A stretch of 44,456 bases of DNA, from the sequence record PV656001.1; one strand, written 5' to 3'. Position numbers and translations under genes: made by a program. This DNA comes from Escherichia phage vB_Eco_ORH_001. The notes below the pieces were generated by a model that ran no database searches, was not told the origin of the DNA, and saw only the letters and a program-made list of their open reading frames with translations. This document shows positions 44,047-44,456 of this stretch, one piece after another. The stretch's first letter is position 1, and each line of letters starts with the position of its first letter.

Positions 44047-44456
44047 ATGAGTTACCTGTTCTTAGACTTTGAAACATTCTCCGAAGCCGATTTAAAGAAA
44101 GTCGGCTCCTACGCTTACGCCGAACATCCCACTACCGAAGTGCTTATCTGTACCTATGCTTTTGATGACGAGCCTGTGCAGGTGTGGGATTGCACCGACG
44201 GCAGCGACATGCCGGGGGATTTGCACCGCGCACTGCGCCGCCTGGTGAAGCCAAACAGTCGCATTAAGATGGTGTGGCACAACGGTGGACTTTTCGATAG
44301 GCTCATCATGAAGCACTGCTGGGACTTTGATATTCCGGTAAGCAACACCATTGATACGATGATTTGGGCGTTTCGTCACGCGCTGCCGGGTTCACTTGAT
44401 GCCTTGTGCGAAGTGTTGGGCGTATCCGCCGACAACGCGAAAGATAAACGCGGCAA
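44047..44456 (+). CDS. DNA polymerase I-family protein, N-terminal 3'-5' exonuclease part (continues in frame across the window junction into 2..1792)
   Basis: ATG at 44047; translation MSYLFLDFETFSEADL contains an Exo I-like D-x-E motif; the final 2 nt 'aa' plus base 1 'g' make codon AAG, and the frame continues at position 2 with no stop. Confidence 0.8.
   Translation, partial: MSYLFLDFETFSEADLKKVGSYAYAEHPTTEVLICTYAFDDEPVQVWDCTDGSDMPGDLHRALRRLVKPNSRIKMVWHNGGLFDRLIMKHCWDFDIPVSNTIDTMIWAFRHALPGSLDALCEVLGVSADNAKDKRG

Follow-up and report, generated by a model that had tools for sequence, protein, structure and literature searches.

Genes that cross the coordinate origin are routine in the records of phages whose genomes assemble as circles. 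The model headful phages P22 and SPP1 have their pac site in or near the terminase small subunit gene, and in the records of both (NC_002371 and NC_004166, respectively) it is the terminase small subunit gene that spans the origin. These records are circular maps of permuted molecules, with the origin placed deliberately at pac or at the terminase small subunit gene, and the P22 record carries a pac annotation. For the Guernseyvirinae, PhageTerm has predicted pac/headful packaging for the related phages Shashou, Sciku and Snoke (PMC6776780, PMC6753286, PMC6776784) and for the member SeF1 (PMC9409062); for the Kagunavirus fBC-Eco01 (PMC9825357) it detected no evident termini. A neighbor-joining tree of the terminase large subunit (TerL), on the other hand, puts the K1G-like terminases with the HK97-type 3′-cos enzymes (PMC11641727). 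The published statements on Kagunavirus packaging are thus in conflict, with HK97-like 3′ cos on one side and pac/headful packaging or an absence of termini on the other.

The window, by which we mean the whole stretch of DNA that was analyzed (44,456 nt; Escherichia phage vB_Eco_ORH_001, PV656001.1), likewise has a gene wrapped around its ends. Here, however, the gene is that of a DNA polymerase and the origin is arbitrary, unlike the deliberately placed origins of P22 and SPP1, and headful packaging, established by experiment in those two phages, is what we infer for this one. The two parts of the polymerase gene are the following.

44047..44456, plus strand: 5′ part of the DNA polymerase gene, codons 1–136 and the AA of codon 137; encodes Exo I and Exo II
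1..1792, plus strand: 3′ part of the DNA polymerase gene, the G of codon 137, codons 138–733 and the TAA stop at 1790–1792; encodes Exo III and motifs A, B and C

The terminal 410 nt begin with an ATG start and run for 136 codons and two further nucleotides (AA) up to the last base of the window. Position 1 is a G, and reading on from position 2 meets no stop before the TAA. When the end is joined to the start (44047..44456 + 1..1792), a frame of 733 codons without an internal stop results, encoding 733 amino acids; the split codon AA/G becomes AAG (Lys137) and the local sequence reads ...DKRG-K-ALIQRF.... The earlier note had described this in-frame wrap, its codon and its local sequence, and the joined translation and homology together confirm all three. 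Since two open-ended ORFs agree in phase by chance in one case in three, the in-frame join says little by itself, and it is homology that decides the matter. Of the 432 phage records that matched a 3-kb query spanning the junction (the last 1,500 nt followed by the first 1,500 nt), 240 cover 80% or more of the query. PV656002.1 matches best, in a single ungapped piece at 100% identity, and phage 26 (MZ832314.1) and BCH953P1 show about 92% identity over the query. With the joined protein, tblastn found a homolog in 1,768 phage records, 1,480 of which cover at least 80% of its length; the matches are mostly single pieces, at identities ranging from 100% down to about 26%.

PV656002.1 is the record of Escherichia phage vB_Eco_Hrm2 (44,455 bp; sewage, Kenya), deposited as a “complete genome”. 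The whole record was compared with the window base by base, and the window proved to be its reverse complement rotated by 10,059 bases. After rotation and reverse complementation the two agree over the first 32,786 nt and the last 11,677 nt, and the sole difference is a single 1-nt indel, nine A’s at window 32778–32786 against eight in the record, which probably stems from the sequencing or assembly of this homopolymer. The window is therefore the same sequence throughout, given on the opposite strand, from another origin and with one extra A. A GC-rich inverted repeat comes after the A run, which, read on the minus strand, is the T tract of a terminator-like hairpin. The ends of the record fall inside the window:

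34397..34398, no strand: ends of the PV656002.1 record (record base 1 is window 34397 and record base 44455 is window 34398)

The mapping was checked by CDS coordinates, record 114..407 corresponding to window 34284..33991. PV656002.1 annotates the polymerase as one 733-residue CDS at 32605..34806 (“DNA polymerase”), and window 44047..44456 is identical to the start of that CDS. Each linear form holds the junction of the other as internal sequence, and both are therefore openings of one circle. That the linear origin is arbitrary, as had been proposed, is borne out by the contiguity of PV656002.1 across the junction and by the collinearity of K1ind3 round the circle described below. The accompanying term “circularly permuted” applies to the records, which are two deposits of one circle with different origins; for the packaged DNA molecules we infer permutation from the probable packaging mode.

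The window ends share no exact direct repeat of 5–400 nt, and blastn-short between them gave only chance matches of 12–13 nt. A terminal repeat between the window ends, whether a collapsed direct terminal repeat (DTR) or a leftover assembler overlap, was considered and rejected, none being present. GC skew, taken in 2-kb bins, hardly changes across the junction (+0.115 for the final bin, +0.104 for the opening one). GC content is likewise continuous there, and this fits a plus-strand block of replication genes that runs through the coordinate origin.

From its sequence, the joined protein is assigned to the family A DNA polymerases. Pfam DNA_pol_A matches it at 62.6 bits against a cut-off (gathering score) of 34.3, and a profile made from the joined protein and five homologs matches the structures of the Taq, Klenow and Bst polymerases, the best match being to Taq (E = 3.8e-27). 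We aligned the joined polymerase with five contiguous homologs at 67–29% identity, those of Edwardsiella phage eiAU, Corynebacterium phage Adelaide, Staphylococcus phage 47, Parabacteroides phage PM682P6 and Xanthomonas phage NEB7. Invariant in this alignment are motif A (DYSxxE; D390 and E395), motif B (RxxxKxxxxxxYG; R442, K446, Y454 and G456), motif C (HDE; D688 and E689), Exo I (DxE; D7 and E9) and Exo III (YxxxD; Y171 and D175). In Exo II (NxxxFD), N79 and F83 are conserved and D84 is D or E among the homologs. The window protein thus resembles the Klenow-type family A polymerases in possessing motifs A, B and C together with the acidic and Tyr residues of Exo I–III, and differs from the solved family A structures in that only the palm/fingers core (about residues 370–495 and 650–710) aligns by sequence.

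The Pfam DNA_pol_A_exo1 match spans residues 59–186, and hence the junction, at a score below the cut-off (20.9 against 23.6 bits), and the exonuclease domain was for that reason assigned from the motifs and the homologs. It is predicted to be a 3′-5′ proofreading exonuclease domain (DEDDy), N-terminal and continuous, and the cut falls within this domain, between Exo II and Exo III, and not between domains. The alignment is ungapped at the junction, where G136 is invariant and K137, the residue of the split codon, is conserved in five of the six sequences. Aligning the joined translation to polymerases had been proposed in the earlier note as a check on the wrap, and the alignment shows no domain discontinuity, gap or register shift at the junction; the product described there, a family A polymerase of about 733 residues with an N-terminal exonuclease domain, finds support in the Pfam match, the motifs and the profile match. 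An insertion of ~53 residues is present at about residues 486–538 of the joined polymerase (window about 1046–1204), shortly after motif B. It is lineage-specific: the window and eiAU, both from enterobacterial phages, share it, and the homologs of the Corynebacterium, Staphylococcus, Parabacteroides and Xanthomonas phages lack it.

The sequence upstream of the polymerase gene holds two further features.

43361..43987, plus strand: Gp2.5-like/DUF2815 ssDNA-binding gene, directly upstream of the polymerase gene (from the annotations of PV656002.1 and relatives)
44007..44030, plus strand: hairpin with a T run (7 bp, −13.4 kcal/mol, z = −3.8 on folding)

The Gp2.5-like gene belongs to the plus-strand replication block that crosses the window junction. 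A consensus terminator scan made no call for the hairpin at 44007–44030, which folding supports, and it is probably the terminator of the Gp2.5-like/DUF2815 gene. Just after it, at 44033–44037, a Shine-Dalgarno sequence (AAGGG) lies 9 nt upstream of the polymerase ATG and supports the gene start. A sigma-70 promoter-like site is also found upstream of the Gp2.5-like gene, at 43279–43307 on the plus strand, with TTGACA and TATAGT separated by a 17-nt spacer (11/12 to consensus).

What kind of molecule the virion carries depends on the packaging enzyme, for which the window has the following genes.

28670..29920, minus strand: terminase large subunit (TerL), 416 residues, Pfam Terminase_6N and Terminase_6C
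29917..30501, minus strand: terminase small subunit, 194 residues, phrog_3064

The window TerL matches Terminase_6N (3.8e-21) and Terminase_6C (5.8e-11), with a weaker match to Terminase_3. When scanned alike, gp2 of the headful phage P22 matches the same two families, Terminase_6N and 6C, the enzymes of the headful phages Sf6 and SPP1 match Terminase_3 with secondary 6N matches, and that of T1 matches 6C. By contrast, HK97 gp2 matches TerL_ATPase (PF03354) and TerL_nuclease (PF20441), to neither of which the window TerL shows a match at E <= 0.01, and lambda gpA matches the GpA families. The Terminase_6 family also holds non-headful enzymes, for example those of T7-like phages. In pairwise comparisons (phmmer, blastp) with the terminases of T1, P22, Sf6 and SPP1 (headful), HK97 and lambda (cos) and T7 (DTR) the window TerL stayed at noise level throughout, and pairwise similarity to these seven references did not discriminate between the headful, cos and DTR classes. 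A phmmer search of TerL against the PDB sequences gave chance matches only. Taken together, the terminase type, as given by its Pfam families, and the PhageTerm results on relatives make headful (pac) packaging and circularly permuted virion DNA the likely mode.

The alternative that survives best agrees that the genome is complete and its origin arbitrary and holds that the virion ends are fixed, either cos ends, such as an HK97-like 3′ cos, or short direct terminal repeats, which the assembler has joined or collapsed, so that the DNA is not virologically permuted. We regard this as possible and, on the evidence, rather unlikely. It is favored by the neighbor-joining tree, by a mention of cohesive ends in the note of the phage 26 record and by the description of a cos site, in generic terms only, in the fBC-Eco01 paper. 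However, the Pfam families of the window TerL are P22-like, not those of HK97 or lambda, and contradict the placement of the K1G-like terminases with the HK97 enzymes, and PhageTerm reported pac/headful packaging in four relatives and no termini in the fifth. Moreover, HK97-type systems use an HNH gene that adjoins the terminase (Kala et al. 2014, as cited by the fBC-Eco01 paper, PMC9825357), whereas the two HNH genes annotated at window 4790–5275 and 17626–18258 are not next to the terminase genes (28670–30501) but more than 10 kb from them. The Kagunavirus terminases form a clade without detectable pairwise similarity to any experimentally characterized terminase, and we assign a smaller chance still to the idea that these phages use a packaging variant unlike the textbook P22 type, such as a headful subtype of their own in which initiation favors one site or the ends are unusual. 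The window origin is arbitrary whichever packaging mode applies.

Completeness was assessed against K1ind3 (GU196281.1), an independently sequenced Kagunavirus deposited as circular, with which the window is collinear round the full circle. On K1ind3 the two ends of the window fall at 30016 and 30018, with one base in between that is the counterpart of window position 1. The record of K1ind3 opens elsewhere:

29920..29921, no strand: origin of the K1ind3 record, at the TerL start codon and internal to the window

In that record, as in those of P22 and SPP1, the terminase small subunit gene crosses the origin. Some 74% of the window aligns with K1ind3, in blocks at 69–95% identity; the unaligned quarter or so of either genome comprises the tailspike and small early genes. 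Under the ICTV genus criterion a phage should share 70% nucleotide identity or more with a classified member across the entire genome; judged against K1ind3 only, the alignment of 74% at 69–95% identity is near or below this threshold. The window TerL is 98–99% identical to those of records labeled Kagunavirus, and the gene order round the circle is the same as in the Kagunavirus genomes K1ind3, phage 26 and fBC-Eco01. The phage 26 record likewise opens inside the polymerase gene, and its note says that the genome is circularly permuted.

The window contains no host DNA. When its two halves were compared by megablast with 5,426 complete E. coli genomes, the first gave a single match of 108 bp and the second gave no match; the window holds no tRNA gene, and no integrase is found among the 82 annotated CDS of PV656002.1. 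The single match (85% identity, window 3238–3345) pairs the phage methyltransferase gene (2576–3376) with a chromosomal DNA cytosine methyltransferase gene. The search of E. coli genomes, the tRNA scan and the record comparison agree with the earlier note in its claim of a whole genome free of host flanks. The opposing reading, of a prophage or fragment with host flanks, or of an incomplete or mis-joined contig that is in frame by accident, has the one-in-three chance of an in-frame join on its side and is refuted by a complete-genome record of independent orientation that is 100% identical over the join, by the K1ind3 collinearity and by the host-DNA searches, with the conservation of the junction residues in distant homologs also against it, so that we consider its probability negligible.

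The polymerase match is broken into two or three pieces in several relatives, and the interruptions were traced in two of them. The polymerase of the Jerseyvirus LDW16 (a Salmonella phage, NC_073194.1) is a 1,032-residue ORF with an in-frame intein of roughly 300 residues, located inside motif B after K446-A447 (IGKA/C...HN/CELGLGY; about 1445–2326 of the locus). The site corresponds to window codon 447/448 (about window 929–934), and the window polymerase is without an intein. In Escherichia phage CR01 (OR061068.1; locus 1202–3209) the polymerase is annotated as three “DNA polymerase I” CDS, with frame changes near residues 456 and 566 and 98–100% identity to the window protein; the frame changes are probably sequencing frameshifts and not a split gene. 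Such pieces are what favors a biological break inside the window polymerase, either the insertion site of a mobile element or a split gene as in some relatives, and this is refuted for the present genome, with scarcely any probability left to it, by the single polymerase CDS in Hrm2 and by interruptions that lie elsewhere in the relatives, none of them at residue 137.

One annotation in PV656002.1 deserves separate mention. A 551-residue ORF at window 22885–24540 on the plus strand, antisense to the major capsid and scaffolding genes, is annotated there as a “hypothetical protein”, and the record has no major capsid CDS. The genes on the opposite strand are the following.

22927–23976, minus strand: major head protein (PHROG match, E = 4e-117)
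23979–24734, minus strand: head scaffolding protein (PHROG match, E = 1e-55)

The antisense ORF itself matched nothing in PHROGs. The capsid gene has none of the codons TTA, CTA and TCA in 350 codons, against 2.6% in the other structural genes, and the antisense frame is open because it is codon-aligned with a gene devoid of these three codons. The 551-residue ORF is thus a shadow ORF, and the annotation of PV656002.1 at the capsid locus is probably wrong.

The reading we prefer, with a probability of about 0.95, is that of a complete Kagunavirus genome with an arbitrary origin and, most probably, headful packaging. The window holds the genome of a virulent siphophage of E. coli from the Kagunavirus group (Guernseyvirinae), the same phage as vB_Eco_Hrm2, obtained as a circular assembly and linearized at an arbitrary point that happens to be polymerase codon 137, between Exo II and Exo III. 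The junction reflects contig linearization and no biological event. Closure of the assembly as a circle would most probably be owed to the packaging of a concatemer by a headful (pac) mechanism, with virion molecules that would be terminally redundant and circularly permuted and reads that would tile the circle without fixed ends.

As such, the junction is an ordinary bookkeeping feature of phage assemblies, and the genome being already in GenBank, the finding is already known. The window offers no host context to interpret, and the junction itself yields no new biology. Its consequences are practical ones: linear annotation pipelines will call the polymerase as two truncated pieces and fail to report the gene as a whole, and the sequence is best treated as a circle or given a new starting point, such as one upstream of the gene for the terminase small subunit.
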